From Clostridia bacterium (GTDB lineage Bacteria; Bacillota; Clostridia; Oscillospirales; CAG-382), in the NCBI GenBank assembly GCA_017436675.1, contig JAFSCS010000040.1, forward strand, positions 17,352-81,351: a stretch of DNA of 64,000 bases. Direction: 5' to 3'. Below, in pieces: positions 12,541-49,696 of the stretch (position 1 is its first letter; each line of letters starts with the position of its first letter). Under the pieces are notes generated by a model. The model was not told the DNA's origin. It did no database searches and saw only the letters and a program-made list of their open reading frames with translations. Position numbers and translations under genes: made by a program.

Positions 12541-13739
12541 AAGACGTTCGTCAGGCATTCCCATATATTTTTGAGCATTGTCAGCAGGTCCATTCGCTCG
12601 ACGTCCTCACAGACGGTTATCGGTGTGTTTCCGACCTCCGTTCCGTTTATATAATAACGCACAACACCGACTATATCACCCGTTTTTATCGGTGCTTCCA
12701 CATTCTCTTTTACTTCAAATTTTGTTTCTACGGCACTCTTTCCCTTTTCTGTCAGCAGACTGCTGTCGTCATAGGTGAGACGTGCCGTACTCTTTTTTCC
12801 GTGAAGGACGTTTATCGGCTCTATCGTCAGTCTTTCGGGAGTTGTTATCATATAGTTCGCGAACCCGTAATCAAGGAGCTGCTTTGCGCAAGAAAAACGA
12901 TCGTCACTCGTTTCTCCGCCGAGAACTACTGCTATCAGTTGCATATTATCGCGCTTTGCGGTCGCACTCAAGCAAAATTTTGCTTTTGAGGTATAACCCG
13001 TTTTCATTCCGGTCGCTCCGTTATAGAAGCGGATGAGCTTATTGGTGTTAGCAAGCCCGAAGGCACCGTTTCTTATCGTATCCATCCAGATGGTCGTATA
13101 TTTGAAGATATCCTCGTGCTTCATCAGCTCTCGTGTCATCAAGGCGACGTCGTATGCACTTGACAGATGGCCTTCCGCATCAAGCCCGTTAGTGTTGACA
13201 AAAAATGTGTCATTCATTCCGAGGACGGTTGCCTTCTCGTTCATCGCATTGACAAACGAGGATTCGCTACCGTATATATGCTCGGCAAGGGCAAGAGTCG
13301 CATCGTTAGCTGAAGATACAACGAGAGATTTCAACAGATCCTCGACGCTCATCGTTTCGTTTGGCTCAAGAAATATTTGGCTTCCGCCCATTGATGCGGC
13401 GTGTTCGCTGACGGTAACTTGGTCGGTATATTTGATCCTTCCGCTATCGATCGCCTCCATCACGAGCAAGGTAGACATAATTTTCGTCACAGATGCTATC
13501 GGGAGCTTTTCGTGTTCATTTTTGTTATAGAGGATCTTTCCGGTCGAGTATTCCATCAGTATTGAGCTTTTTACCTTTTGGTCGCCGCTGAATTCTGCCA
13601 TCGTTTCGTTCGTTTCATACCAATAGTCCTCTGTCGGATAGTAGACGGGATATATTTCGGCTGTTTCAGATGCGTTAACTGCCGTAATAAGCGACGTCAA
13701 CAACAAGATTATTAATAACGCTATGATCGATCTTTTCAT
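12537..13739 (-). CDS. D-alanyl-D-alanine carboxypeptidase (S11 family, PBP5/DacB-like)
   Basis: Signal peptide, then SVTK (SxxK), SSAND (SxN) and KTGYT (KTG) motifs in the correct order. Confidence 0.9.
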   Translation of the reverse strand: MKRSIIALLIILLLTSLITAVNASETAEIYPVYYPTEDYWYETNETMAEFSGDQKVKSSILMEYSTGKILYNKNEHEKLPIASVTKIMSTLLVMEAIDSGRIKYTDQVTVSEHAASMGGSQIFLEPNETMSVEDLLKSLVVSSANDATLALAEHIYGSESSFVNAMNEKATVLGMNDTFFVNTNGLDAEGHLSSAYDVALMTRELMKHEDIFKYTTIWMDTIRNGAFGLANTNKLIRFYNGATGMKTGYTSKAKFCLSATAKRDNMQLIAVVLGGETSDDRFSCAKQLLDYGFANYMITTPERLTIEPINVLHGKKSTARLTYDDSSLLTEKGKSAVETKFEVKENVEAPIKTGDIVGVVRYYINGTEVGNTPITVCEDVERMDLLTMLKNIWECLTNVF

Positions 13740-36399: not shown

Positions 36400-37725
36400 T
36401 TAATCTTTAGCTTTCAATTCGTCAAATTTTTGCTTCATTGTAGGATTGTGTTCAGTCAAACGTTTTATTGATAAATCTTGTGCTTTATTATTAGCAAGCC
36501 TTAAATTGTTTTCAGACGATAATAATTCACTTTTGATATTTTGAAGATGAATAATAGTCTTGTCTATTTCCTCAATAGCTTTTTGAAATTTTTCACTAGC
36601 AAGTCTATAGTTTCGCGAGAACTTAACTTTAAAATCATTCATATCTTCCTCGAATCGTGTTATGTCCAAATTTTGATTCTTAATTATTGCTAATTCTTGT
36701 CGATATTGAAGTGCATTTGAAGCGGAATTTCTTAAAAGGGTTATAATAGGAATAAAAAATTGGGGACGAACAACATACATTTTAGGGTATTTATAGGAGA
36801 CATCAGTTATACCCGAATATAGTTCATTGTCTGCCTCAAGCATTGTAACTAATACGGCATATTCACAATTCTTTTCACGTCTATCCTTGTCGAGTTCCTT
36901 AAAAAAGTCTTCGTTTTTCTTTTTAGTTGCTGTGGTATCTGCTTCATTTTTCATTTCAAACATAATTGAAATGAATTCAGTTCCATCTTCACCAAAATCT
37001 CTAAAAATAAAATCACCTTTACTTCCACTTTTTGCATCGTTATCCTTTTCAAAATATGCATTTTGAAACCCTGTAGCACGCAATCTATTAAACTCTATTT
37101 GACAATGCTGTTCTAGTGTTTCTCCAAGTAGTTTGGTAGAAAGTTTAGATTTAAGATCTTTGTAGTATTCTATTTCGATATCCTTTTCTCGTATTTCTTT
37201 TTCGTGTTCGTGTATAAGCTCTTGTTCTTTAGCCCGATAATTAGAGATTAGTTTTTCTTTTTCATTGTTTGCCATTTCCTCGAAATGTTTTTGATCTTGC
37301 TTATTATGTTCAATCTGCAATTTAAGTGAATTAATTTGGTTGTCTTTATTTATCACTGCAAGCTTAATGTCATTTTCTCTTGAACTGTTCAAAATAGCTA
37401 GTTGATTTTCTAAGGATTGTATTTTTTGTAACATTTCATTAGTTTCTTTTTGATGTTCTTCGTTTGCTTTAATTATGGCGTTGGTCAAATTGAGATCGGC
37501 ATCTTTTCTGTTGACATCAATTTGAAATTGCAAATCTTTTATTTCAGTATCTTTTTTGTGAATCTGATTGTTGTAAGTTTCAATTACCTTGGTGAGTTCA
37601 AGCTGTAGTTGAGACTTGATTTCCTTTTCGAACTCTTTATCCTTTACTTGTTTTATTAATGCGGAATATCCTGCTTCATCTACTTGAAATACCTCTCCGC
37701 ATTTTGGACACTTAATCTCATTCAT
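36400..37725 (-). CDS. DUF2130-type protein: N-terminal Zn-ribbon, long coiled coil, C-terminal PD-(D/E)xK nuclease-like domain
   Basis: The protein starts with a Zn-ribbon, IKCPKCGEVFQVDEAGY. About 170 aa of heptad-rich E/K/Q sequence follow. The C-terminus has ...SKGDFIFRDF...FISIMFEMKNE (D...E-x-K). Strong RBS AAAGGAGG. Confidence 0.75.
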   Translation of the reverse strand: MNEIKCPKCGEVFQVDEAGYSALIKQVKDKEFEKEIKSQLQLELTKVIETYNNQIHKKDTEIKDLQFQIDVNRKDADLNLTNAIIKANEEHQKETNEMLQKIQSLENQLAILNSSRENDIKLAVINKDNQINSLKLQIEHNKQDQKHFEEMANNEKEKLISNYRAKEQELIHEHEKEIREKDIEIEYYKDLKSKLSTKLLGETLEQHCQIEFNRLRATGFQNAYFEKDNDAKSGSKGDFIFRDFGEDGTEFISIMFEMKNEADTTATKKKNEDFFKELDKDRREKNCEYAVLVTMLEADNELYSGITDVSYKYPKMYVVRPQFFIPIITLLRNSASNALQYRQELAIIKNQNLDITRFEEDMNDFKVKFSRNYRLASEKFQKAIEEIDKTIIHLQNIKSELLSSENNLRLANNKAQDLSIKRLTEHNPTMKQKFDELKAKD

Positions 37726-37743
37726 ATTATTAAACCTCCTTTG

Positions 37744-38826
37744 TTAATTATTATCTACTATTTGACCATTTTCTAAAAACTTGGTTTTTAAATCATTACC
37801 AATTAAATACTTAAGTATTTCATAAGCAATAAGCTTTTTTGCTTCATTCTTAGAATCGCAAATGTATCCTCCACTGGGGGTAATCAGTCCATCAATGGTG
37901 CATATGCACTTCCATTGTGGATTACCGCACTGAGAGCTAGTATGCTTTTCAAAACTGTATTTGGGTTCGGATATAATCTTTTTTTGGTACAATTCTTGTA
38001 GTTGATTTATAGCTCTATTTTGATCAGGTTCTCCTACTGACTTGATTATTACTTCTTTGCGATTGTTGATTTTGTTAATAACCTTCATTGCACGCTTCGC
38101 TGCCATTCGTTTTGCCCCTTTTTCCGTTAAACCATATCCATATGCAACGTAATTTAACATATTAAAGCCAAGATTGACATTGACACCGCACTTTAGGTTT
38201 TCATTTATAGAAGAAACAAATTCAAAATTTAAAGTATCATTATTTTCAGAAAACCAATTTTCAAGAGATTTTTCCCAGTCTTCTTCGTCCTTTGAACCTT
38301 TTTCGAGGATGCCATCAATATCAAGCATATCAGAAACAACCTTTTCAAGAATAGTCATATTCCAATTACAGTCAATAGCGAGTGCACCTACAATTGCTTC
38401 AAAAAGGTCTTCTTTAACTGATGGTTGATTTTGTACTTCTCCCAAAATATCACTTTTGCCCATTAACAAATAATTTTCCAAACCAAGATTTTCGGTTGCT
38501 GCAGCAAGAGTAGATCGCTGAACAATACTAATTTTTAGATCACTAAGTTCTGCTTCATCAAGTTCACAAGAAAAAGCACTTTTAATTGAATATAGTTTTT
38601 TTAGGTCAGTCGGGATCTTAGGGGTGTCTATCGTATAGTGAGCTATAAGTCGTTTTACTACAACTATGCCTAAAATGCTATCACCTATAAATTCCAAAAC
38701 CTCGTTGTCGTAAGTATTGTTCTCTGAAGCATATGAACTTCTTGTAAATGCTTGTTCTAGCAAATCTGGATTATTGAAATGATAGTTGAGTTTTTTCTCA
38801 ACTTCGTGAATGTTGAATTTCTTCAT
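37744..38826 (-). CDS. Atypical RNase III-family protein with two C-terminal dsRBD-like modules
   Basis: RNase III signature NEVLEFIGDSILG plus KEDLFEAIVGA, so the catalytic acidic residues are present. Two dsRBD-like endings follow (...GYGLTEKGAKRMAAKRAM and ...GGYICDSKNEAKKLIAYEILKYL). Start set at the ATG at 38826, 9 nt after GGAG. 360 aa, whereas canonical bacterial Rnc is shorter and has a single dsRBD. Confidence 0.8.
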   Translation of the reverse strand: MKKFNIHEVEKKLNYHFNNPDLLEQAFTRSSYASENNTYDNEVLEFIGDSILGIVVVKRLIAHYTIDTPKIPTDLKKLYSIKSAFSCELDEAELSDLKISIVQRSTLAAATENLGLENYLLMGKSDILGEVQNQPSVKEDLFEAIVGALAIDCNWNMTILEKVVSDMLDIDGILEKGSKDEEDWEKSLENWFSENNDTLNFEFVSSINENLKCGVNVNLGFNMLNYVAYGYGLTEKGAKRMAAKRAMKVINKINNRKEVIIKSVGEPDQNRAINQLQELYQKKIISEPKYSFEKHTSSQCGNPQWKCICTIDGLITPSGGYICDSKNEAKKLIAYEILKYLIGNDLKTKFLENGQIVDNN

Positions 38827-38908
38827 AGTTTTATTCTCCAATTATTTCTAAAAGATTATTTTATGATTAAAGTTATCTGTTTATAGAAGATAAAATTATT
38901 TACTGATA

Positions 38909-39202
38909 TTAAGCAACACATCCCCCCATAACATATTTTTTGACATAATTTATTTCACGTTTAATGTGAGTTATTGTATTATTTAGTCGCTCGTTGTACT
39001 TCCAATTTCTAAAGTTTAATACTTCATTCTCGGAACGTCCGTCTTTAAACCAAAAGTATACACCTTTTGAAAAGGGTTGATTAAACAACCAAAACATACC
39101 ATTACTGTTTTTTAAATAGAATTCAAGAAACTCTTTTTTTATAATTCGATTATTTGACTCAGTTACCTTAAAAGTTTTTGTTACAATTATCTTGTTTTTC
39201 AT
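38909..39202 (-). CDS. Hypothetical 97-aa protein, first gene of the AT-rich operon
   Basis: RBS AAAGGAG 7 nt upstream. Basic and aromatic-rich. No motif recognised. Confidence 0.5.
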   Translation of the reverse strand: MKNKIIVTKTFKVTESNNRIIKKEFLEFYLKNSNGMFWLFNQPFSKGVYFWFKDGRSENEVLNFRNWKYNERLNNTITHIKREINYVKKYVMGGCVA

Positions 39203-39555
39203 TTGATTTCTCCTTTAAATAATTTTTTCTTTTTGTTTGCTAAGTGCAAATAAAAAAACCTCCTTTGCAGAAATAAGCAAAAAAGGCATAAAAATAGACC
39301 AACCAAGTTACAAAAGCAAACAAAATGTAACAAGAATTAGTCTAACTCAAAAAAATTATTTAAAATAATCCAAACGTATTTGTAATATTCCGACTAAGCT
39401 CTTTACGGAATATAACAAATAAAAAAGTATTATAATAAGCAATTTTTATGATTATACCTAATTTACGGTTATATTATCACATCTTTTATAATTTGTCAAT
39501 ACCTTTTCTATATTTACACGAAAAGAGAAGAACGAGAAGAGAAAAGTGAAGAGAA

Positions 39556-39598
39556 CAAAAAGAAACGACAATCTTCTGTCGAAAATTGTCGTTTCTTT
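39556..39598 (-). terminator. Terminator immediately after tmRNA
   Basis: Stem agaaacgacaat / attgtcgtttct with a T-run on the minus strand. Confidence 0.75.
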
Positions 39599-39599
39599 T

Positions 39600-39946
39600 T
39601 GGTGGAGGCGAGGGGAGTCGAACCCCTGTCCGAAAAAGATTCAACACAACTTTCTCCGAGCGCATACGATCATTTAATTTCCCTTGCGTGTACGCCGATC
39701 GTCAGGCTTACTCGTTCGGTAGCTTCATTGAGTCATGGAAAATATCAAAGCTTTTATCTTCGCACGTTCACTGCTGTGTCACGCCACGTTCGAGCTCGCA
39801 GTCCTTCCCGAGGTGACGGCCGCCCTTAGGCAGCGATTGCTAAATTTCTGTTAGCGTTTATATTTAAGTTTACGGTTTTTATAGAAGTCCCGCGCTTCTG
39901 CTCGCTTATCGTATCTCTTCTTCCCCGTCGAAACCTTTACGCCCCC
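39600..39946 (-). ncRNA. ssrA: tmRNA (SsrA)
   Basis: The 5' end is GGGGGCGTAAAGGTTTCGACGGGG and the 3' end is ...GGGGTTCGACTCCCCTCGCCTCCACCA. The acceptor stem includes the G3:U pair. The internal tag ORF GCT AAC AGA AAT TTA GCA ATC GCT GCC TAA (39855-39826) encodes ANRNLAIAA. Confidence 0.95.
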
Positions 39947-40435: not shown

Positions 40436-41137
40436 TCAATCAAAATACTTTACTTTTACCTCGAAAACGTTCTTTCCGTCACGAGTGATGACAGAATCAT
40501 ATCCGTTTTCGTTATACCAATAGTTTACCTCTCCGAGCTCACCAAGCTTCATTTCGCTTACATAATGGAGGTCTATCAAGCTTATATCCTTATGCTCTTT
40601 ACAATAGTCATCGACGATATCGACGTAGATACAGTTATTGAGGTGGTCGTTTTGGTCGAGCATAGAATAGAGCACCTTGAACTCGGATCTGGAATCGCTC
40701 TCATCCTTTTTGATCCTGAACGTATCTATTTCGAGGTCGATCTCACGGTCGAGGTCGGGGATCTTTTTCGTCAAGACGTCGGGGCGGGCAATTCTACCCT
40801 TCTCGATATCCATCAGTACCCACTGGTTTACGGCGCAGCCTACGTTTTCTTCACCAACGAAGAATTCAAAATTTCGGAAGAACGAGACACCCTTTACCTT
40901 ATGCTGCCAAGTTTCCATTGTTATTATTTCGCCGCATTTTATCGGTCTATTCAATTTTATTGCATTTCTCGCGACAACGAACACGACACCATCGTTTTTC
41001 ATTGCCTCGTAGGTTGAGCCTATTTTATCGCAATCCTCTCTTGCGGCTTGTTGCATTGCCTTCATCAATGAGGAGATACGAAGTGTGCTTCTTGGGTTCG
41101 TATCGTAGCTTTTTACTTCAAAATCTGCTTTAATCAT
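40436..41137 (-). CDS. Acyl-ACP thioesterase family protein
   Basis: 233 aa with a double hot-dog layout (…ETWQHKVKGVSFFRNFEF…) typical of the acyl-ACP thioesterase family as I recall it. Confidence 0.7.
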   Translation of the reverse strand: MIKADFEVKSYDTNPRSTLRISSLMKAMQQAAREDCDKIGSTYEAMKNDGVVFVVARNAIKLNRPIKCGEIITMETWQHKVKGVSFFRNFEFFVGEENVGCAVNQWVLMDIEKGRIARPDVLTKKIPDLDREIDLEIDTFRIKKDESDSRSEFKVLYSMLDQNDHLNNCIYVDIVDDYCKEHKDISLIDLHYVSEMKLGELGEVNYWYNENGYDSVITRDGKNVFEVKVKYFD

Positions 41138-42131
41138 TTTTTTGTTTAACGCCGGAAAGCGGGTTTGCCTCCATTGCTTCTTTTAGTTTTTCGTTTGAAA
41201 CGTGGGTATATATCTGTGTTGTATTGAGCTGTTCGTGACCAAGTATATCTTTTAATGCTCTCACGTCAACGTTGCCGCTTTCGTACATCAAGGTTGCGGC
41301 GGTATGGCGAAGCTTATGTGTCGAATAGCCTTTATTTCCGAGACCTGCCATTCGAAGATGCTTTTTCACGGTATATTGAACGGTTTTTCCCGATATTCTC
41401 GTTCCGTTTCCGCTCAAGAACAATGCATTTTTATCTTTTACGTTTATTTGGAAGTCCTTATAGACGCCCTTTGTCCGAACCTCGAGGTAATTCTTTACTG
41501 CATCTCGGCAAGCGGTATTAAGGTAGATAACACGCTGTTTACTTCCCTTTCCGGTTACGACGAGCGAGGAAAAGTCATCCTTTATATCGGTGAGGTTGAT
41601 ATTTACGAGCTCCGAGAGACGCATTCCGCAATTCAAGAAAAGCGTCAGCATACAATAGTCTCTCGCATAGGTCTTACTACCCTTATCGACTGAATTGAGC
41701 AATTCAAGAGATTCGTCGATCGAGAGGTATCTCGGAAGCTTATGCTTTATATTCGGTGAGTCGATATCCTTCACGGGATTATCGGTGAGTGTTTTTGATT
41801 TTTGGGTATGGTATTTATAAAACGCACGAAGCGTTGAAAGCCGACGGGCACGGGCGCTGTCTCCGTTGTCACGTTCGTTCGCAAGGAAAAGCAAAAACGC
41901 ATAGATATCCTCGCTTCGTATTGAGGCGACACGATCCATATCTATCTTTTCGAGCTCAAGCGGATCGACGTCATCAAACGGTCGGTTTTCGCTTTTGGAT
42001 ATAATAAATCGGAAAAACAGTGAGAGGTCATGCTCATATTTTTCGCACGTTAATTTCGAGCAGTTTTGGATGACTTGTTTATAAGTCAGAAACGATCTGA
42101 CGGGTTCGGGTGTTATTTTTAGCGTCATCAC
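41130..42131 (-). CDS. Tyrosine recombinase (XerC/XerD/integrase family)
   Basis: Catalytic R (GMRLSEL), HKLRHTAAT (HxxR) and LGHEQLNTTQIYTHV (H...Y). The stop overlaps the thioesterase start by 8 nt. Confidence 0.85.
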   Translation of the reverse strand: MMTLKITPEPVRSFLTYKQVIQNCSKLTCEKYEHDLSLFFRFIISKSENRPFDDVDPLELEKIDMDRVASIRSEDIYAFLLFLANERDNGDSARARRLSTLRAFYKYHTQKSKTLTDNPVKDIDSPNIKHKLPRYLSIDESLELLNSVDKGSKTYARDYCMLTLFLNCGMRLSELVNINLTDIKDDFSSLVVTGKGSKQRVIYLNTACRDAVKNYLEVRTKGVYKDFQINVKDKNALFLSGNGTRISGKTVQYTVKKHLRMAGLGNKGYSTHKLRHTAATLMYESGNVDVRALKDILGHEQLNTTQIYTHVSNEKLKEAMEANPLSGVKQKND

Positions 42132-42867: not shown

Positions 42868-43068
42868 TTGGAGGAGCTTTGCTTTTGCAGGGACAAAAAC
42901 AATAAAGATATGACTATCCCGGCGCCATCTCTTGCGATGGTATATTCACCGAAGCAGGTTTGGGGCGAGACGTATGAGGTTGACGTTGCGCTTGAGAGAG
43001 GGACATTGTTTCCCGAGCTTGACAAACCGTTTTTGGGGTATTTGAAGGAGGATATACGAGGACGATGA
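42868..43068 (+). CDS. cotJA: Spore coat-associated protein CotJA
   Basis: LAMVYSPKQVWGETYEVDVALERGTLFPELDKPF matches the CotJA family motif. The start codon is uncertain. Confidence 0.8.
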   Translation: MEELCFCRDKNNKDMTIPAPSLAMVYSPKQVWGETYEVDVALERGTLFPELDKPFLGYLKEDIRGR

Positions 43069-43316
43069 ACAAAGAGAAAGAAAAGCTGATGAAGATGCTC
43101 CAGGCGATGGATTTTGCGATTTATGAGACGGCGCTTTTTTTGGATGCCAATCCGAAAAACAAGCGTGCGCTCGACTATTTCAAGAAGGCGCGTGAGATGC
43201 GCGACCAGATCAGAGAGCAATACGTTGAGAAATACGGTGCGGTGAATTTCGGTACCATTCACGGCGAGAGCTGGGATTGGGTGGAGACACCGTGGCCGTG
43301 GCAATACGAAGGTTGA
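43065..43316 (+). CDS. cotJB: Spore coat protein CotJB
   Basis: LLKMLQAMDFAIYETALFLDANPKNKRALDYF... and 4-nt overlap with cotJA. Confidence 0.85.
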   Translation: MNKEKEKLMKMLQAMDFAIYETALFLDANPKNKRALDYFKKAREMRDQIREQYVEKYGAVNFGTIHGESWDWVETPWPWQYEG

Positions 43317-43331
43317 GGAGGGATATAGGAT

Positions 43332-43937
43332 ATGTGGAGCTACGAAAAGAAATTGCAATACCCTGTTAAGATAAAAAATCCGAACCCTGCGCTTGCGAAG
43401 GTCATTATCACGCAATTTGGCGGGCCTGACGGTGAGCTTGGTGCATCGATGAGATATTTGAGTCAGAGATACTCGATGCCGTACGGTGAGGTCGTTGGAA
43501 TTTTGTCGGACGTGGGCACGGAGGAGTTGGCGCACCTTGAGATGGTGTCGGCGATCGTGCATCAGTTGACGAGGAACATGACCATTGAGCAGATCAAGGA
43601 GAGTGGGTTTGAGCCTTATTTCGTTGATCACACTGCGGGGATCTATCCCGTTGCAGCTTCGGGTGTTCCCTTCTCCGCGATGGCGTTTCAATCGAAGGGT
43701 GATGCTATCACCGACATTATGGAGGATCTTGCGGCGGAGCAAAAGGCGAGGACGACGTACGACAACATACTGCGGCTCGTTGACGATCCCGACGTACGCG
43801 ATCCGATAAAGTTTTTACGACAACGCGAGCTTGTGCATTTTCAACGCTTCGGTGAGGCGTTAAGGATATGTCAAGACAATCTCGACAGCAAGAACTTTTA
43901 TGCGTTCAACCCCGAGTTCGACAAGGGTAGGAAGTAA
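43332..43937 (+). CDS. cotJC: Spore coat protein CotJC (manganese-catalase-like ferritin fold)
   Basis: Motifs YPVKIKNPNP, QFGGPDGELGASMRYLSQRY and EELAHLEMV. Confidence 0.9.
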   Translation: MWSYEKKLQYPVKIKNPNPALAKVIITQFGGPDGELGASMRYLSQRYSMPYGEVVGILSDVGTEELAHLEMVSAIVHQLTRNMTIEQIKESGFEPYFVDHTAGIYPVAASGVPFSAMAFQSKGDAITDIMEDLAAEQKARTTYDNILRLVDDPDVRDPIKFLRQRELVHFQRFGEALRICQDNLDSKNFYAFNPEFDKGRK

Positions 43938-43971
43938 TATTAAAGCAGATGGTCCTACCATCTGCTTTTTT
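43891..43971 (+). repeat. Left copy of a direct repeat (cotJC 3' end plus terminator); partner at 49608-49688
   Basis: The first 62 nt (43891-43952 vs 49608-49669) match with 1 mismatch. The hairpin loops then diverge, and the 3' stem arm atctgcttttt is again identical. Confidence 0.9.
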
Positions 43972-43976
43972 GTTGT

Positions 43977-44005
43977 TTGACAATTGGGGATTATTGTAGT
44001 ATAAT
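43977..44005 (+). promoter_or_regulatory. Perfect consensus sigma-A promoter of the helicase cassette
   Basis: TTGACA (43977-43982), exact 17-nt spacer, TATAAT (44000-44005), immediately after the cotJC terminator. Confidence 0.75.
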
Positions 44006-44039
44006 GAAGTATCTTTATATAGTTGAGGTAATTATCAAT

Positions 44040-44606
44040 ATGACAGAACTTGAAAAAATTGCTTACGCTAAATCATTCATTGACAAACTCGCAAATGGAA
44101 TTAATCCGATTGATAATCAACCTGTAGCGGAGTATGACGCTTTAAACAATGTTAGACTATCAAGATGCTTTTTCTATGTGTCGGATATTTTAAGACAAGT
44201 AATTGAAAATGGTGGAATTACACCTCCTAAGAAACAAACAAAGAAAAATCCTTCTTCCCCTTTTTTCATTACTCAACAACAGCTTTCCCAATACTCCTAT
44301 TCAGATAAACCAATAACCATCAGCGAAATAGCTAAAAGAATTAATTCGCTCATAGATACAGAGCAAATGAAACAATTATCCTATAAGCAAATTATGGGAT
44401 TTCTTTTAAGCATAAATGCCTTATCAGAACAACCAAATACTTATGGAAAGCTTTGTAAGTTTCCAACTGAAACAGGCAAACAACTGGGTCTTTCACTTGA
44501 AACGCGCAACGGTGATAGGGGTGAGTATCAGGTTGTTGTTTACAATAAAGAAGCACAGATGTTAATTCTTGATAATATCGAAGTGATTATTGCTACTAAA
44601 AACTAA
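44040..44606 (+). CDS. Hypothetical 188-aa protein, first gene of the helicase cassette
   Basis: ATG at 44040 with GAGGT upstream. Translation MTELEKIAYAKSFIDKLANGINPIDNQP... A basic linker (PPKKQTKKNP) separates two helical halves. No motif recognised. Confidence 0.65.
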   Translation: MTELEKIAYAKSFIDKLANGINPIDNQPVAEYDALNNVRLSRCFFYVSDILRQVIENGGITPPKKQTKKNPSSPFFITQQQLSQYSYSDKPITISEIAKRINSLIDTEQMKQLSYKQIMGFLLSINALSEQPNTYGKLCKFPTETGKQLGLSLETRNGDRGEYQVVVYNKEAQMLILDNIEVIIATKN

Positions 44607-44628
44607 TATAAAGTGGAGATTGATTGTT

Positions 44629-47600
44629 ATGGCAAAATCAATTTTGTTTTTCGACATCGAGGTTGGTGTTAATGATAAGAAAATACACGATATAGGAGCA
44701 GTACGTTTAGATCAAAGGGTTTACAGTTCTAGCTCTATATGGGATTTTTATAACTTTATTTCTAATACAGAGTATATTTGCGGCCATAATATCATTCATC
44801 ACGATATAAAATTTTTAGAAGAAGCACTTTCTAAAAAACTCCCCAACAAAGCTATAGACACTTTATATCTATCTCCACTTCTATTCCCCAAAAGACCATA
44901 CCATCGACTTTTAAAAGACGACAAACTTCAAAGTGCAGAATTAAACAATCCTGTAAATGACAGCAAAAAAGCTCGGGATTTGTTTTTCGATGAAGTGAAT
45001 GCGTTTTATAACCTTAAAGAAGAGAGAAAAAAGATATTTTGTGAACTACTATATAACTTTGTGGAGTTCCAAAGTTTCTTTGATTTTGTTGATTTCAAAC
45101 CGAACAACTACAGTATTAAGCAGATGATTCTTGATGAATATCGCGATAAAATATGTGCTAACGCGGATATTGATCTTTTAGTCAAGTTTTATCCGAAAGA
45201 ACTAGCATATTCTCTTGCTCTTATAGGATGTGGGGATCAATATTCTACGACACCACCTTGGCTATCACATAACTTTCCTAAGATAGAGAATGTTATAAAA
45301 TTTCTTTGTAATACACCATGTACAGATGGATGTGATTTTTGTAGAAATGCACTTGATGTACATAAAGGGCTAAAGAAAATATTCGGATTTGATACTTTCC
45401 GTACTTATAACGGAGAACCGCTTCAAGAAATGGCAGCAAAAGCAGCCGTTGAAGGCAAATCTCTCCTTGCGGTGTTCCCAACGGGCGGTGGAAAATCTAT
45501 TACGTTCCAACTTCCTGCTCTTATGGCGGGTAAGACTGCACACGGATTAACCATCGTTATTTCTCCTTTGCAATCCTTGATGAAGGATCAGGTTGATAAT
45601 CTCGCAGAAAAGGGGATTGAAGATGCAGTTACCGTTAATGGAATGCTCAATCCTGTTGAACGAGCCGAAGCGATTGATCGTGTTGCAAGTGGCAAAGCAT
45701 CTATCTTGTATATTTCTCCCGAGCAACTTCGATCTAAAACTATAGAGCGTCTTTTAATGTCTCGTAACATCGTGAGATTTGTAATAGATGAGGCTCACTG
45801 CTTCTCGGCTTGGGGACAAGATTTCCGAGTAGACTATCTCTATATTGGAGATTTTATTCGTAAGCTTCAAAAGGAAAAGAAAACCGATAAAATGCCAATT
45901 CCCGTGTCGTGCTTTACGGCAACGGCAAAACAAAAGGTCATTACTGATATATGCGATTATTTCAAAAAGAAGCTTGATCTTGACCTCGAGATTTTTGCCT
46001 CAACTGCAACTAGAGAAAATCTGCATTATACGGTTTTACACAAAGAGACCGATGATGAAAAATATACTGCTTTGCGTTCACTGATTGCGCAAAAGAATTG
46101 TTCAACAATCGTCTATGTTTCAAGAACCAAGCGCACATTTGAGCTTGCAAGTAAATTGACAAGCGATGGCTTTAATGCTTTACCTTATAACGGCAAGATG
46201 GATTCTAATGATAAGATTGCTAATCAGGAAGCCTTTATGAATAACGAGGTATCAATTATCGTTGCAACCTCGGCTTTTGGTATGGGCGTTGACAAGAGCG
46301 ATGTTAAACTCGTTGTTCACTACGATATTTCCGATTCTCTCGAAAACTATGTTCAAGAAGCGGGACGTGCCGGGCGAGACCCCTCTCTTCAAGCGGATTG
46401 TTACGTACTATTCAATGATAACGATTTGGACAAGCACTTTATCCTTTTGAATCAAACAAAACTGAGCATCAGCGAAATTCAGCAGGTATGGAAGGCAATA
46501 AAGGACTTAACGAAAAACAGACCGAATATATGTTGTTCTGCTCTTGAAATTGCGCGTCAAGCTGGTTGGGATGATTCAGCAGGTTCGGAAATGGAAACAA
46601 GAGTAAAAACTGCAATAGCAGCACTTGAAACAGCAGGATATATCATTAGAGGCAGAAATGTGCCACACGTTTATGCGACAAGCATACGTGCAAAAGATAT
46701 GAGTGAGGCATCTTACCGTATACGAAAATCGAGTCTGTTTACAGAAAAACAAAAAAATACAGCTCTTCGCATTGTAAAATCCCTCATATCGAGCCGTAGC
46801 ATTGCAACTGCGGGCAACCCGGATGCTGAATCTCGTGTTGATTATCTTGCAGATATTCTTGGTATCGAGAAGGAATCAGTCATTGAATCTATAAACCTTA
46901 TGCGTCAGGAAGGACTACTTGAAGATTATAATGATATGTCCGCATACATATATGATTCAGATAGTCAGCATAAATCAACGCTTGTTCTTGACCGCTTCGC
47001 TAAACTCGAAAGATTTATCCTTTCAAAATTCACGGATGAAGGAATATCTTTTGGTTTTAAAGAACTCAATGAAGAAGCACAGAATAAAGGTATCACAACC
47101 TCTAATGTAAAAAATATTAGAACTCTTCTTCATTTCTTAGCAATAAAAAATTACATAACCAAAGAAGAAAATAGAGATAGCTTTTCCGTAAATCTTGTTC
47201 CCTCTCTTAATCTAAAACGAATTATAGAGAAGTTTGAGAGACGCATTGATATCTGCCGTTTTATTCTCGAAGAACTTTACGAGAAAACAACACCAAATAA
47301 AGAAGAAGATACAGAAAAGAAGCCTGTTGAATTTTCTTTAGTTGGACTGTTTAAAGCCTATCAATCTACTCCACGAATGGAAACAATTGATACAAAGGTT
47401 GTACTTTCTGATGTGGAGGATGCACTTTTATATCTGTCCAAAACAGGCGCATTAAAACTCGAAGGCGGTTTTCTCGTACTATATAATGGTATGGAAATCA
47501 AGCGTGTTGTTAGAGACAACCGTATCAAATACAAAAATGACGATTATCGTTTACTTGATGAATTTTACAAGCAGAAAATTCGTCAGATACACATTGTAGG

Positions 47601-49434
47601 TGAATATGCAAATCTTATGGTTCGCGATTATAATGCAGCTTTGCAGTTTGTTCAAGATTACTTTAATATGGACTTTAAAAAGTTCATTGCAACCTATTTC
47701 AAAGGAGACAGAGCAAAAGTTATTGAACGAAATATAACACCCGAAAAATATAATCAGCTTTTTGGAGAACTTTCAGATAAACAAGCTGAAATCATAAACG
47801 ATGCAGAATCAAAATATATCGTAGTTGCGGCAGGGCCCGGAAGTGGAAAAACTAGAGTGCTTGTACATAAGCTTGCGTCCTTGTTACTTCTCGAAGATGT
47901 AAAACACGAGCAGCTTTTGATGCTCACATTCTCTCGTGCGGCGGCTACTGAATTTAAAAAACGTTTGGTTAAATTGATTGGTAATGCGGCTAACTTTGTA
48001 GAAATTAAAACTTTCCACTCATATTGTTTTGATCTTCTTGGAAAGATCGGCACGTTAGAAGGGTCTAGCAATGTTGTAAAAGATGCCGCCGATATGATTC
48101 GAGCAGGTGAAGTAGAGCAAGGAAAGATTACAAAAAGCGTGTTAGTTATTGATGAAGCTCAAGACATGGATGAGTATGAATTTGCGCTTGTTCAATCCTT
48201 GATTATGAACAACGATGATTTACGTGTCATTGCTGTTGGCGACGATGATCAGAACATTTATGAGTTCCGTGGCTCAAACTCAAAGTATATAAAGAAACTT
48301 GTCGAAGAATATGCAGGAAATCTCTATGAAATGACGGAGAACTATAGAAGTAAGACGAACGTTATTGCATTGGCTAATGCTTTCGCAGAATCGATTAACT
48401 ATAGAATGAAATCCGCTCCAATTGAATCAGTAACGGAAGAAGTTGGAGAGGTGCGAATCACGCATCACACTAGCGACAATATGGAAGAGTCTGTCGTTAA
48501 CGAGTTAATTTCGACATATAAAAGCGGCAAGGCGTGTGTACTTACCAACACGAATGATGAGGCTCTTCGAGTTCTTGGGCTTCTTTTGAAGCACGGAAAA
48601 AGAGCAAAGCTAATTCAATCGTTAAACGGATTCAGATTGTATAACCTTCTTGAAATCCGTGTGTTCTTGAAGGCAATTAATCGTAATCTCCACTCGCCTG
48701 TTATTTCCGATGAAGTATGGCAAAATGCAAAAAAAGAGCTATTCAGCAAATATCATAACAGCACTTGTATTGACAATGTTAGACGTTTAATTTTAGACTT
48801 TGAAGCAACTCATTCTGTAAAGTATCGTTCCGATTTCGAGGAATTTATAAATGAATCGAAATTTGAGGATTTTTACGATGAACAAGATCACGAAGTTATC
48901 TATGTATCTACGATTCATAAATCAAAAGGTCGAGAATTTGATAACGTTTATATGATGTTGAAAAACTCCACTGGTAAAACCGATGCAGAGCGCGGAGCTT
49001 TATACGTTGGTATGACAAGAGCCAAGAGTAATCTTTACATACACACAAATACTACGTTGTTTGACAAATATCGTATGAATGGCATTGAACACTATGTAGA
49101 TAATAATGCGTATGATGAGCCTAATGAAATTATGCTTCAAACAACCCATAAAGACGTATTCCTTGGTTTCTTCAAAGGCAAGAAGGAAATAATATCCAAT
49201 CTTCGCAGCGGAACAAAGTTAAAGATTGATGATGTATTCCTTGTAGCAGAGTGCAACGGACGAGATGTACATGTTGCTAAACTATCAAAAGCCTTTGTGG
49301 AATTACTTGAAAAATTGAAGGAAAAAGGATATTCTCCTAAGTCTTCCGAAGTGCGATTCATTGTTGCATGGAAGGGTGAAGAAGATACGGATGAATCACT
49401 AATTATCCTTGCAGATATTTATTTAAGTAAATAA
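44629..49434 (+). CDS. 1601-aa fusion protein: DEDD-like 3'-5' exonuclease + RecQ-type SF2 helicase + UvrD/PcrA-type SF1 helicase
   Basis: The N-terminus has exonuclease-like motifs: ILFFDIEV, HNIIHHDIKFL and NPVNDS. The RecQ core follows: FPTGGGKSITFQLPAL, VIDEAHCFSAWGQDFRVDY, CFTATA, ATSAFGMGVDKSDV and QEAGRAGRD. After a linker of about 400 aa comes the UvrD core: AAGPGSGKTRVLV, LVIDEAQDM, VGDDDQNIYEFRGS, ENYRS, STIHKSKGREFDNVYM and LYVGMTRAK. Confidence 0.9.
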   Translation: MAKSILFFDIEVGVNDKKIHDIGAVRLDQRVYSSSSIWDFYNFISNTEYICGHNIIHHDIKFLEEALSKKLPNKAIDTLYLSPLLFPKRPYHRLLKDDKLQSAELNNPVNDSKKARDLFFDEVNAFYNLKEERKKIFCELLYNFVEFQSFFDFVDFKPNNYSIKQMILDEYRDKICANADIDLLVKFYPKELAYSLALIGCGDQYSTTPPWLSHNFPKIENVIKFLCNTPCTDGCDFCRNALDVHKGLKKIFGFDTFRTYNGEPLQEMAAKAAVEGKSLLAVFPTGGGKSITFQLPALMAGKTAHGLTIVISPLQSLMKDQVDNLAEKGIEDAVTVNGMLNPVERAEAIDRVASGKASILYISPEQLRSKTIERLLMSRNIVRFVIDEAHCFSAWGQDFRVDYLYIGDFIRKLQKEKKTDKMPIPVSCFTATAKQKVITDICDYFKKKLDLDLEIFASTATRENLHYTVLHKETDDEKYTALRSLIAQKNCSTIVYVSRTKRTFELASKLTSDGFNALPYNGKMDSNDKIANQEAFMNNEVSIIVATSAFGMGVDKSDVKLVVHYDISDSLENYVQEAGRAGRDPSLQADCYVLFNDNDLDKHFILLNQTKLSISEIQQVWKAIKDLTKNRPNICCSALEIARQAGWDDSAGSEMETRVKTAIAALETAGYIIRGRNVPHVYATSIRAKDMSEASYRIRKSSLFTEKQKNTALRIVKSLISSRSIATAGNPDAESRVDYLADILGIEKESVIESINLMRQEGLLEDYNDMSAYIYDSDSQHKSTLVLDRFAKLERFILSKFTDEGISFGFKELNEEAQNKGITTSNVKNIRTLLHFLAIKNYITKEENRDSFSVNLVPSLNLKRIIEKFERRIDICRFILEELYEKTTPNKEEDTEKKPVEFSLVGLFKAYQSTPRMETIDTKVVLSDVEDALLYLSKTGALKLEGGFLVLYNGMEIKRVVRDNRIKYKNDDYRLLDEFYKQKIRQIHIVGEYANLMVRDYNAALQFVQDYFNMDFKKFIATYFKGDRAKVIERNITPEKYNQLFGELSDKQAEIINDAESKYIVVAAGPGSGKTRVLVHKLASLLLLEDVKHEQLLMLTFSRAAATEFKKRLVKLIGNAANFVEIKTFHSYCFDLLGKIGTLEGSSNVVKDAADMIRAGEVEQGKITKSVLVIDEAQDMDEYEFALVQSLIMNNDDLRVIAVGDDDQNIYEFRGSNSKYIKKLVEEYAGNLYEMTENYRSKTNVIALANAFAESINYRMKSAPIESVTEEVGEVRITHHTSDNMEESVVNELISTYKSGKACVLTNTNDEALRVLGLLLKHGKRAKLIQSLNGFRLYNLLEIRVFLKAINRNLHSPVISDEVWQNAKKELFSKYHNSTCIDNVRRLILDFEATHSVKYRSDFEEFINESKFEDFYDEQDHEVIYVSTIHKSKGREFDNVYMMLKNSTGKTDAERGALYVGMTRAKSNLYIHTNTTLFDKYRMNGIEHYVDNNAYDEPNEIMLQTTHKDVFLGFFKGKKEIISNLRSGTKLKIDDVFLVAECNGRDVHVAKLSKAFVELLEKLKEKGYSPKSSEVRFIVAWKGEEDTDESLIILADIYLSK

Positions 49435-49477
49435 ATCACACATTTACGGATTAAACACAAAAGATTATAACACATAA

Positions 49478-49525
49478 AAAAATCGGGGGTGTGAAAACCC
49501 CCGATTTTACTTGGTTTTTTTATAG
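49478..49525 (+). terminator. Terminator of the helicase cassette
   Basis: Stem atcggggg / cccccgat followed by a T-rich tract. Confidence 0.75.
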
Positions 49526-49553
49526 TTGCGTTCATTTCCATCATCGTACCACC

Positions 49554-49655
49554 GACGAGTTGGCACACCTTGAGATGGTATCGGCTATTGTGCATCAGCT
49601 GACGCGAAGAATTTTTATGCGTTCAACCCCGAGTTCGACAAGGGTAGGAAGTAAT
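49554..49655 (+). pseudogene. Internally deleted cotJC remnant
   Basis: 49554-49607 is about 85% identical to cotJC 43521-43574 (encoding ELAHLEMVSAIVHQLTR). It is then joined directly to a copy of the last cotJC codons, so about 316 nt of the gene are missing. The two pieces are out of frame. Confidence 0.75.
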
Positions 49656-49688
49656 ATTAAAGCAGATGGTTTGAGCCATCTGCTTTTT
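49608..49688 (+). repeat. Right copy of the cotJC 3' end/terminator direct repeat
   Basis: See the left copy at 43891-43971. Confidence 0.9.
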
Positions 49689-49696
49689 GGATTATA

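Follow-up and report, generated by a model that had tools for sequence, protein, structure and literature searches.

A predicted exonuclease-RecQ-UvrD fusion protein carried as strain-variable cargo at the cotJC locus of a Clostridia bacterium

What does a protein that appears to join an exonuclease and two helicases in one chain do on a short, strain-specific insert behind cotJC, and is the small gene in front of it a dedicated partner? These questions are raised by a stretch of 64,000 nucleotides from a Clostridia bacterium (assembly GCA_017436675.1, contig JAFSCS010000040.1, positions 17,352 to 81,351 of the forward strand), which we call the window. Two co-oriented open reading frames (ORFs) on its + strand, both with ATG starts, encode proteins of 188 residues (44040-44606) and 1601 residues (44629-49434); a gap of 22 nt separates them, and a GGAG/GAGG ribosome-binding site precedes each. 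An original prediction, made from the sequence alone, had described this tightly spaced pair just as we find it, and proposed a horizontally acquired defence cassette consisting of a singular large protein and its own small partner. Our analysis indicates that the large gene product is a triple-module enzyme under strong purifying selection, and that it belongs to a common family, catalogued under a generic name, of uncharacterised fusions of an exonuclease with superfamily 2 (SF2) and superfamily 1 (SF1) helicases on mobile DNA. The operon is accessory and horizontally acquired, one of several alternative cargoes of a hotspot, and its two genes make up a "system" only locally and facultatively.

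Architecture and distribution of the large protein

Pfam places DEAD and Helicase_C in residues 264-583 of the large protein and UvrD-helicase and UvrD_C in residues 1049-1474, with 109 bits for PF00580 (cut-off 23) and 57.6 bits for PF13361 (cut-off 25.6). The first motor falls in the RecQ subfamily by TIGR00614 (recQ_fam), which scores 276.2 bits against a cut-off of 219.8 over residues 248-610, and the motif sets of both motors (Walker A, DEAH, motif VI and others) are invariant in homologues. The protein is neither a housekeeping RecQ nor a housekeeping PcrA, because the equivalog models score far under their cut-offs: 320 against 640 for TIGR01389 and 248 against 1015 for PRK11057 in the case of RecQ, where the match is limited to profile positions 5-374 of 591, and 104-124 bits against 911-1144 for pcrA, uvrD and rep. 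The recB and addA equivalogs are also far under theirs, and RQC, Zn-binding and HRDC domains were not detected in the large protein by Pfam. The linker between the motors gives weak Pfam signals for HTH_Crp_2, HTH_36 and MarR_2 (E 0.006-0.02) and has no sequence match in the PDB; neither the helical connector ahead of the RecQ-type core nor, in Pfam, the C-terminal domain has a family match. The fusion with intact motifs that had been read directly from the letters is confirmed by Pfam, NCBIfam, motif conservation and a structure match at the N-terminus.

That N-terminal match came from structure prediction. The first 250 residues have no significant profile match and only weak ones to PHROG DNA-polymerase exonucleases; DNA_pol_B_exo1 of Pfam is matched by 4 of 30 homologues, with a best E of 0.003, and phmmer and hmmsearch against the PDB returned nothing for the domain. 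The AlphaFold model of this region, built from 19 homologues of at least 58% identity, has a predicted local distance difference test score (pLDDT) of 87.5 and a predicted template modelling score of 0.86. Its best PDB match in Foldseek is Staphylococcus aureus DinG (8zef_A, E 1.4e-4, probability 1.0), followed by the exonuclease domains of family-B polymerases (PolB), NrnC, RNase AS and EXD2, and all top matches are DnaQ-like. By position in the predicted secondary structure, D9 and E11 on strand 1 would form ExoI, D59 at the start of helix B ExoII, and D111 at the start of helix 108-127 ExoIII. This acidic tetrad does not vary among 30 sequences of Clostridia, Bacteroidota and Kiritimatiellia, nor in five distant homologues, including those of Aliarcobacter and Allochromatium plasmids (31-33% identity over the N-terminal region); H53 and N54, which accompany D59 at the start of helix B, are invariant too. 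With the DEDD residues and both helicase motif sets unchanged across phyla and the exonuclease fold supported by the model, the enzyme is likely to be active.

The large protein had been thought an unusual one-off, and here the original prediction fails, as the family is large, conserved and already catalogued. More than 120 clusters at 90% identity are 69-88% identical to it over the full length, and those with a name are called "RecQ family ATP-dependent DNA helicase". Scanning one genome per species gave at least 579 confirmed relatives, the best 80 of which supply the large-gene neighbourhood counts below. These 80 are near full-length, except for four cut by a contig end, share 52-87% identity over the best aligned segment, and come from Oscillospiraceae, Lachnospiraceae, Christensenellaceae, Bacteroides, Phocaeicola, Prevotella, Alistipes, Muribaculaceae, Flavobacterium, Chitinophagaceae and Kiritimatiellia. 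Plasmids carry more remote members, 27-58% identical across 76-100% of the protein; the hosts are Bacteroides, Phocaeicola, Aliarcobacter, Allochromatium, Sulfitobacter, Cereibacter, Rhizobium, Nostoc, Pseudanabaena and Deinococcus, and thus include Proteobacteria, Campylobacterota and Cyanobacteria. A phage-borne gene is ruled out by the 50,697 phage records searched, which hold RecQ-core matches only and no full-length match. Within the collection covered, the full-text literature searched gave no description of an exonuclease-RecQ-UvrD fusion.

Mobile elements carry the large gene, and it also travels by itself. In an Opitutales genome, a 78% identical copy stands alone between NTP_transferase and shikimate dehydrogenase genes (L174/L175:8001-12830; loci of other genomes carry L numbers throughout), with neither the small gene nor a mobility gene within 8 kb, which suggests a recent cross-phylum transfer of the single large gene. 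Histidine-biosynthesis and phosphoglucomutase genes lie further upstream of that copy.

The cotJC hotspot and its cargo

All contigs with an identical CotJC carry the cassette. Those with an identical CotJB include sister strains of the same synteny that lack it (L180, L182, L183 and L184, the last on a contig that stops short of the binding-protein gene). Common to the sisters are smpB, a thioesterase gene, a XerC-like gene, cotJABC, and the genes for a 485-residue binding protein, a BNR protein and an AraC protein. In blastn comparisons the left homology (97.5%, with cotJC itself at that nucleotide identity up to 43927) ends at 43927/43971 and the right homology (96.3%) resumes at 49471, so the strain-specific DNA runs from about 43972 to 49470, beginning 5 nt before the promoter and stopping 36 nt past the stop codon. 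In its place the sisters carry a 67-residue gene, an extra copy of the cotJC 3' end and genes for BspA-like leucine-rich-repeat lipoproteins (392-461 residues). Because sisters with flanks 96-97.5% identical lack the cassette and hold other genes at the site, we regard it as accessory cargo, and the gap between cotJC and the solute-binding-protein gene as a recombination-prone, strain-variable hotspot that contains an old, decaying second cotJC copy (43890-43971 and 49471-49694; L180:9800-10404 and 12761-12956). Where the original prediction suggested looking for an empty junction, the sisters lack the cassette and hold other cargo. Horizontal acquisition, which it had also proposed, is upheld by these cassette-free alleles and by large proteins 76-88% identical in unrelated contexts, the 78% copy being in a different phylum.

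The direct repeat and cotJC fragment said to bracket the cassette are real, but they belong to the resident locus and pre-date the insertion. The 3' end of cotJC with its hairpin (43890-43971) recurs at 49600-49694; the repeat core (43890-43953 and 49607-49670) is 98% identical over 64 nt and the match continues through the hairpin, and an internal cotJC piece (43517-43571) is 87% identical to 49550-49604. The hairpin at 49479-49508 falls within the right homology block shared with the sisters, and so does the cotJC pseudo-copy, although the sisters' version of it is deleted internally at another place, a GGTTTGAGCC microhomology. Since both are present in cassette-free strains, hairpin and cotJC repeat are neither owned by the cassette nor scars of its insertion, and an att site or scar formed by them is ruled out. 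The strong terminator once assigned to the cassette itself (49478-49525) is this same resident hairpin, and the cassette has neither a terminator nor a recombinase of its own. As for an integrase, there is none inside, and the XerC-like gene at 41130-42131 is kept in all sister strains and not tied to the cargo.

The predicted TTGACA-17-TATAAT promoter is confirmed at 12 of 12 positions and is the sole perfect match in the 7.2 kb scanned, where a rough composition estimate gives a chance expectation of ~0.02; for weaker promoter-like matches, the same scan gave no excess over shuffled sequence. Relatives of the cassette show no DNA homology to the promoter. Homology to these is confined to coding sequences, extending over the small and large genes in L194 and over the large gene only in L199 and L168, where it breaks 1 nt before the ATG. 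The AT-richness noted earlier is real, yet modest: the cassette has a GC content of 36.6%, against 41.8% for the window, 49.9% for cotJABC and 38.8% for the right flank, and ranks within the lowest six when 117 windows of 5.5 kb are compared. The cotJA, cotJB and cotJC genes (Pfam CotJA, CotJB and Mn_catalase) lie upstream at 42868-43937. Coordinates are collected in Table 1.

Table 1. Features of the hotspot, its cargo and the modules assigned to the large protein (window coordinates)
Feature	Position	Strand	Basis
Intact cotJC, Mn-catalase family; left border gene of the hotspot, context and not cargo	43332..43937	+	Pfam Mn_catalase E 8.5e-52
cotJC terminator hairpin, part of the left cotJC-3' repeat copy (43890-43971)	43942..43968	+	Terminator scan, repeat comparison
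Strain-specific cargo, promoter and two genes	43972..49470	+	blastn against L180, L182, L183, L184; GC content
Sigma-70/SigA-type promoter, TTGACA-17-TATAAT	43977..44005	+	12/12 match
188-residue protein, predicted N-terminal helical hairpin and C-terminal alpha/beta domain	44040..44606	+	AlphaFold; BFVD fold match
Predicted DnaQ-like DEDD 3'-5' exonuclease domain, residues 1-127	44629..45009	+	AlphaFold, Foldseek, invariant residues
Helical connector, residues 131-250, with conserved Cys cluster C176, C231, C235, C238	45019..45378	+	pLDDT mostly >90; conservation
RecQ-type SF2 core, residues 248-641 (GGGKS, DEAH, QEAGRAGRD)	45370..46551	+	Pfam DEAD, Helicase_C; TIGR00614
Linker of ~400 residues, residues 642-1045	46552..47763	+	Weak winged helix-turn-helix signals at ~727-766
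UvrD/PcrA-type SF1A core, residues 1046-1481 (GPGSGKT, DEAQD, VGDDDQNIY, HKSKGREF, VGMTRAK)	47764..49071	+	Pfam UvrD-helicase, AAA_19, UvrD_C, UvrD_C_2
Conserved C-terminal domain, residues 1482-1601, and stop codon	49072..49434	+	Conservation in homologues
GC-rich hairpin, 12 bp stem, can terminate the operon; resident locus	49479..49508	.	Terminator scan; identical in cassette-free L180 12770-12800
Decayed second cotJC copy, internal 55 nt joined to 3' end and hairpin; resident locus	49550..49694	+	Right repeat copy

A separate observation (window 36400-39946) concerns the other side of smpB, which adjoins a transfer-messenger RNA (tmRNA) gene (39600-39946, - strand, tag ANRNLAIAA). The DNA beyond it is very AT-rich (25-34% GC) and codes for an RNase III-like protein of 365 residues and a coiled-coil protein of 441 residues. 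Sister strains carry different genes on that side of smpB and the tmRNA gene, pointing to another variable island, at ssrA.

The small protein, the neighbours and the function

The 188-residue protein has no match in Pfam, NCBIfam, PHROG or PADLOC, and none in PDB sequence searches with phmmer and hmmsearch, yet its family is large, with 2968 matches in a 90%-identity protein collection and 2385 clusters at 50% identity in the public protein library. Its AlphaFold model has a pLDDT of 81 overall and above 90 for residues 75-188, the N-terminal hairpin being of lower confidence. By fold, BFVD ranks antirepressor and repressor-domain proteins highest (E 3.5e-4 to 6e-3, TM-score about 0.35-0.42), with a phage antirepressor first, and the fold search of the PDB gives weak winged-helix resemblances only (E ≥0.12). 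In longer homologues the C-terminal module is doubled, or a helix-turn-helix like those of Myb, GcrA or sigma-r4 and a Cys-rich tail are added. The protein is most likely a DNA-binding regulator or targeting adaptor of winged-helix/antirepressor type.

Is it a dedicated partner, as had been claimed? In part: the pair does recur in several close Clostridial relatives with large proteins 76-88% identical (the window lineage, L171-173, L194, and L197-198 with a divergent small gene). Wider tests in both directions argue otherwise. The small gene adjoins the large one in 2 of 80 large-gene genomes (upstream in L058, downstream in L048) and the large gene adjoins the small one in 3 of 81 small-gene loci (L087, L101 and L121), and these reciprocal neighbourhood tests rule out a conserved two-gene system. 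Among the close relatives, other genes fill the slot upstream of the large gene: a DnaG-like primase gene in L168, unrelated small genes in L195, nothing in L174, and, in the closest two (L199, 6965-7981, and L007; 87-88% identity), the gene for a 338-residue protein with a nucleoside-deoxyribosyltransferase-like C-terminus. The small gene, in turn, is followed on the same strand by a 945-residue UvrD-type helicase flanked by zinc ribbons, unrelated to the 1601-residue protein, in 33 of the 58 loci with at least 1.5 kb downstream; these loci are not independent, many being the same island in related strains. Its recurrence with two different UvrD-type helicases is notable. Islands with the small gene also hold PLD-ResIII-DUF3427 helicases, NUDIX and MazG-like genes, more helicases, reverse transcriptase, methylases, hsdR and AbiE; viral contigs gave one small-gene match only, beside hsdR and AbiE genes, and some small genes stand alone among housekeeping genes. 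Most likely, the small protein is a facultative, lineage-specific accessory and no obligatory subunit.

Two side observations belong here. In L007 the ORF at 3-518 stays open upstream of the deoxyribosyltransferase-like similarity, and that upstream part is unrelated and presumably resembles an ABC-transporter ATPase, which suggests a recombination junction inside the gene. The ORF as a whole is not an ABC-transporter fragment, for its C-terminal half is the end of the 338-residue gene that is intact in L199. Separately, L089, L097, L129, L149 and ~30 other small-gene loci share an array: a PLD-ResIII-DUF3427 helicase (~1050 residues), a gene of the 188-residue family, sometimes a NUDIX gene, the 945-residue UvrD helicase with zinc ribbons at both ends, a MazG-like gene and a ResIII/SWI2-SNF2 helicase (753 residues). 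This looks like a multi-helicase island or system.

Defence-type matches near the large gene in the 80 genomes include SoFic, PDC-S04, PbeA, AbiEii, a type I restriction enzyme and HNH. Immediate neighbours matched 145 PADLOC families (E 1e-10 or better), against 56 for equally many control genes from the same loci that lie 6 kb or more from the large gene, a local enrichment to be taken as a rough indicator, since this contrast counts hidden Markov model families and not independent genes. Close relatives (76-88%) sit in long co-directional arrays, as found in Clostridial integrative or mobilisable elements. Mobility and associated genes in these comprise serine recombinases, a relaxase with TnpV, DUF6809, an ISL3 transposase and a peptide deformylase; TIR, SIR2_2 and NERD genes, an SLFN-g3 helicase with NUDIX, a DUF3427 helicase, a methylase-HNH-methylase set, an AAA_15/21 gene with an HNH gene, and SbcCD occur in the same arrays. 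The homologue on an Allochromatium plasmid adjoins a type I restriction-modification system.

Two gene pairs stood out within those elements. In three different Clostridial elements (L168:1-966, L195:3086-5625, L197:4675-7205), the large helicase gene is preceded at a distance of a few genes by a pair encoding an SLFN-g3 (DUF2075-type) helicase of ~710 residues and a NUDIX protein of ~130 residues. Elsewhere in the arrays, a gene for a protein of 83-90 residues (a conserved one of 83-84 in L168 and L171, one of 90 in L199) precedes a DUF6809 gene whose product starts with a motif like MK..I.ELW[YH]GN (L171:12895-13396, L168:12902-13310, L199:17267-17798). In L168 and L171 this pair comes right after the large helicase, whereas in L199 ~4.5 kb lie between them. 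The window's minimal cassette does not have the pair, and DUF6809 also occurs in several small-gene loci.

We tentatively favour, at somewhat less than even confidence, a role in conflict with foreign DNA, in which the large protein would act as a single-effector nuclease-helicase factor of immunity or of competition between elements. We do so because of its strain-level variability, its hotspot location, its neighbouring genes and the precedent of helicase-nuclease defence effectors. Several results weigh against it. The 132 proteins neighbouring the large gene in the 80 genomes match 159 Pfam families with no conserved partner, Fic being the most frequent with 4 matches; at most of the 80 loci the neighbours are heterogeneous and often housekeeping, and the PADLOC contrast is, as said, crude. 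No model of PADLOC 2.0 spans the large protein, which has partial domain matches to DpdF, PsyrT and GajB only. In the exonuclease head, the His or Tyr general base expected 4-5 residues before the last Asp is absent and an invariant Asn (N106/N107) stands there; with N106 replacing it, exonuclease activity is not certain, although H92, which is invariant and lies in a low-confidence loop of the model, might substitute. Other points against a conflict role would suit a mobile-element or host DNA-maintenance factor, a portable combination of RecQ, UvrD and an ExoX/ExoI-like activity that would serve the host genome or the ICEs, mobilisable transposons and plasmids carrying it. It would restart forks, process DNA that enters or replicates, resolve recombination intermediates or curb illegitimate recombination, with no part in immunity. 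Repair and recombination families are the source of each enzymatic module, conservation between Bacteroidota and Clostridia is very high (52-60% identity over 1600 residues), and many chromosomal copies lie among housekeeping genes. Close relatives stand beside a DnaG-like primase gene, or SbcCD with a LexA-like repressor gene, which points to mobile-element DNA metabolism, and plasmid homologues adjoin ParA/ParB/Rep/DnaB genes (Aliarcobacter) or SSB/ParA/ParG genes (Bacteroides). We consider maintenance a serious rival, though a less likely one: the gene is sporadic and strain-variable, moves alone without the rest of any replication module, is often embedded among TIR, SIR2, restriction-modification and Abi-type genes, and occurs in hosts that already own a housekeeping RecQ and PcrA, neither of which it is by equivalog scores.

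An obligate two-component system, with the 188-residue protein as dedicated sensor, adaptor or antitoxin-like inhibitor, would have its analogue in RqlHI (PsyrTA), where the toxicity of a RecQ-like protein is restrained by its neighbour and the two genes are not always paired (PMC4670107). The tight operon, the PsyrT-like RecQ module (E 2.5e-83) and the recurrence of the pair (L171-173, L194, L197-198, L058, L087, L101) fit such a system. It is improbable all the same, given that the partner gene is not nearby in 78 of 80 large-gene genomes and 78 of 81 small-gene loci, that the closest relatives hold a primase-like or deoxyribosyltransferase-like gene upstream with homology breaking at the start of the large gene, and that the small gene is found more often before a different helicase, or alone among housekeeping genes. 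Moreover, RqlH toxicity maps to a phosphoribosyltransferase (PRTase) domain (PMC4670107) that the large protein lacks. Very unlikely, in our view, is a counter-defence or establishment factor that would dismantle host immune intermediates such as R-loops and nicked or gapped DNA, or protect transferred DNA. Such a role has been proposed for large multi-domain helicase/methylase proteins of conjugative elements (PMC5512222), and the co-directional accessory arrays do contain methylases, ParB-like genes, peptide deformylase and DUF6809. Solo chromosomal copies without an element are common, however, the window copy among them; homology to known anti-defence proteins was not seen, and the phage records hold no full-length copy.

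Returning to conflict with foreign DNA, we propose a model where the operon is transcribed from its consensus promoter and the enzyme would load at single-strand/duplex junctions, that is at nicks, gaps, forks or 3' tails. RecQ helicases move 3'-5', as do UvrD, PcrA and Rep of the SF1A group, and DEDD exonucleases degrade 3'-5'. By family membership, then, two ATP-driven 3'-5' motors would unwind the duplex or strip proteins from it and the exonuclease would digest the freed 3' strand, so that replication or recombination intermediates of an invading phage, plasmid or conjugative element would be destroyed or disabled. The anatomy, the conserved catalytic residues, the accessory status, the mobility and the genomic contexts are observed; the substrates, the motor polarity, the cooperation of the domains and the defence role are what we infer here. 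It is tempting to speculate further that the fusion is the effector of a hitherto unnoticed, very widespread single-polypeptide, dual-motor immune system, found in bacteria of gut and environment and on their plasmids, with swappable upstream genes as sensors or regulators (antirepressor-like, primase-like, deoxyribosyltransferase-like or none), and that the 188-residue family is a general UvrD-helicase accessory in defence islands, though we consider this extended version less likely than not.

If the large protein does serve immunity or element competition, it would represent a new helicase-nuclease defence architecture, in which a single chain unites an SF2 motor, an SF1 motor and a DEDD exonuclease; hundreds of species from gut, rumen and environment already have this architecture, as do plasmids. 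Biochemists would gain a bacterial counterpart to the WRN-type exonuclease-RecQ arrangement, and the question arises by what mechanism motors from two superfamilies, both of 3'-5' polarity, would work together on a single substrate. Another family that has not been studied is that of the 188-residue protein, with ~2400 clusters at 50% identity; because it recurs upstream of UvrD-type helicases, it can be put to the test. Even should maintenance or repair prove right, the generic "RecQ family helicase" annotation would be corrected on many genomes.

Comparison with known systems

The original prediction recognised no named system in the cassette, and this stands: PADLOC 2.0 offers no whole-protein model for the large protein and no match for the small one. 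The large protein falls outside housekeeping RecQ, PcrA and UvrD as well as Gabija, PsyrTA/RqlHI and Dpd, since it lacks a defining feature of each. Its RecQ-like module finds its top PADLOC match in DpdF (E 5.5e-97), but the NCBIfam equivalog scores 203 bits against a cut-off of 550 and the cassette has no other dpd genes. PsyrT/RqlH shares the RecQ-like core over profile positions 9-376 of 689, and in both cases the small upstream partner is facultative; its C-terminal PRTase domain is absent from the cassette protein, which adds the exonuclease and UvrD modules instead, and the 188-residue protein has no PADLOC match to PsyrA. Gabija, Nhi, Hachiman and DdmDE resemble the cassette in placing a helicase and a nuclease on mobile or defence islands, yet each has a single helicase where the cassette protein has two motors and a DEDD nuclease. 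The UvrD module does match GajB models (E ~1e-45), over the SF1 core only, and no OLD/TOPRIM nuclease partner of GajA type is found in the cassette, either as a separate gene or through a PADLOC match of the small protein.

The domain logic seems closest to WRN and to Gram-positive DinG, and as a two-motor nuclease the protein also resembles RecBCD and AddAB. RecBCD, AddAB and AdnAB process DNA ends with two motors and a nuclease and double as a barrier to foreign linear DNA. They are multi-subunit enzymes with two SF1 motors and nucleases of the RecB family (PD-D/ExK), whereas the cassette enzyme would combine SF2 and SF1 motors with a DEDD exonuclease in one chain. DinG of S. aureus and Bacillus subtilis is likewise bacterial, carries an N-terminal DEDD exonuclease fused to a helicase (PMC12525004) and provides the best structure match at the N-terminus; its helicase belongs to SF2. 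It differs in having a single XPD/Rad3-like motor, where that of the cassette protein is RecQ-like, and in being a chromosomal repair gene. WRN shares the DnaQ-like DEDD 3'-5' exonuclease, the RecQ-type SF2 core and winged-helix-like segments in the same N-terminal order. It is eukaryotic and has the Tyr of the DEDDy type, however, and the cassette protein is bacterial, has N106 at that place, lacks a detectable RQC or HRDC domain and adds a UvrD motor and a C-terminal domain. The likeness is one of arrangement, and common descent of the two architectures is not implied.

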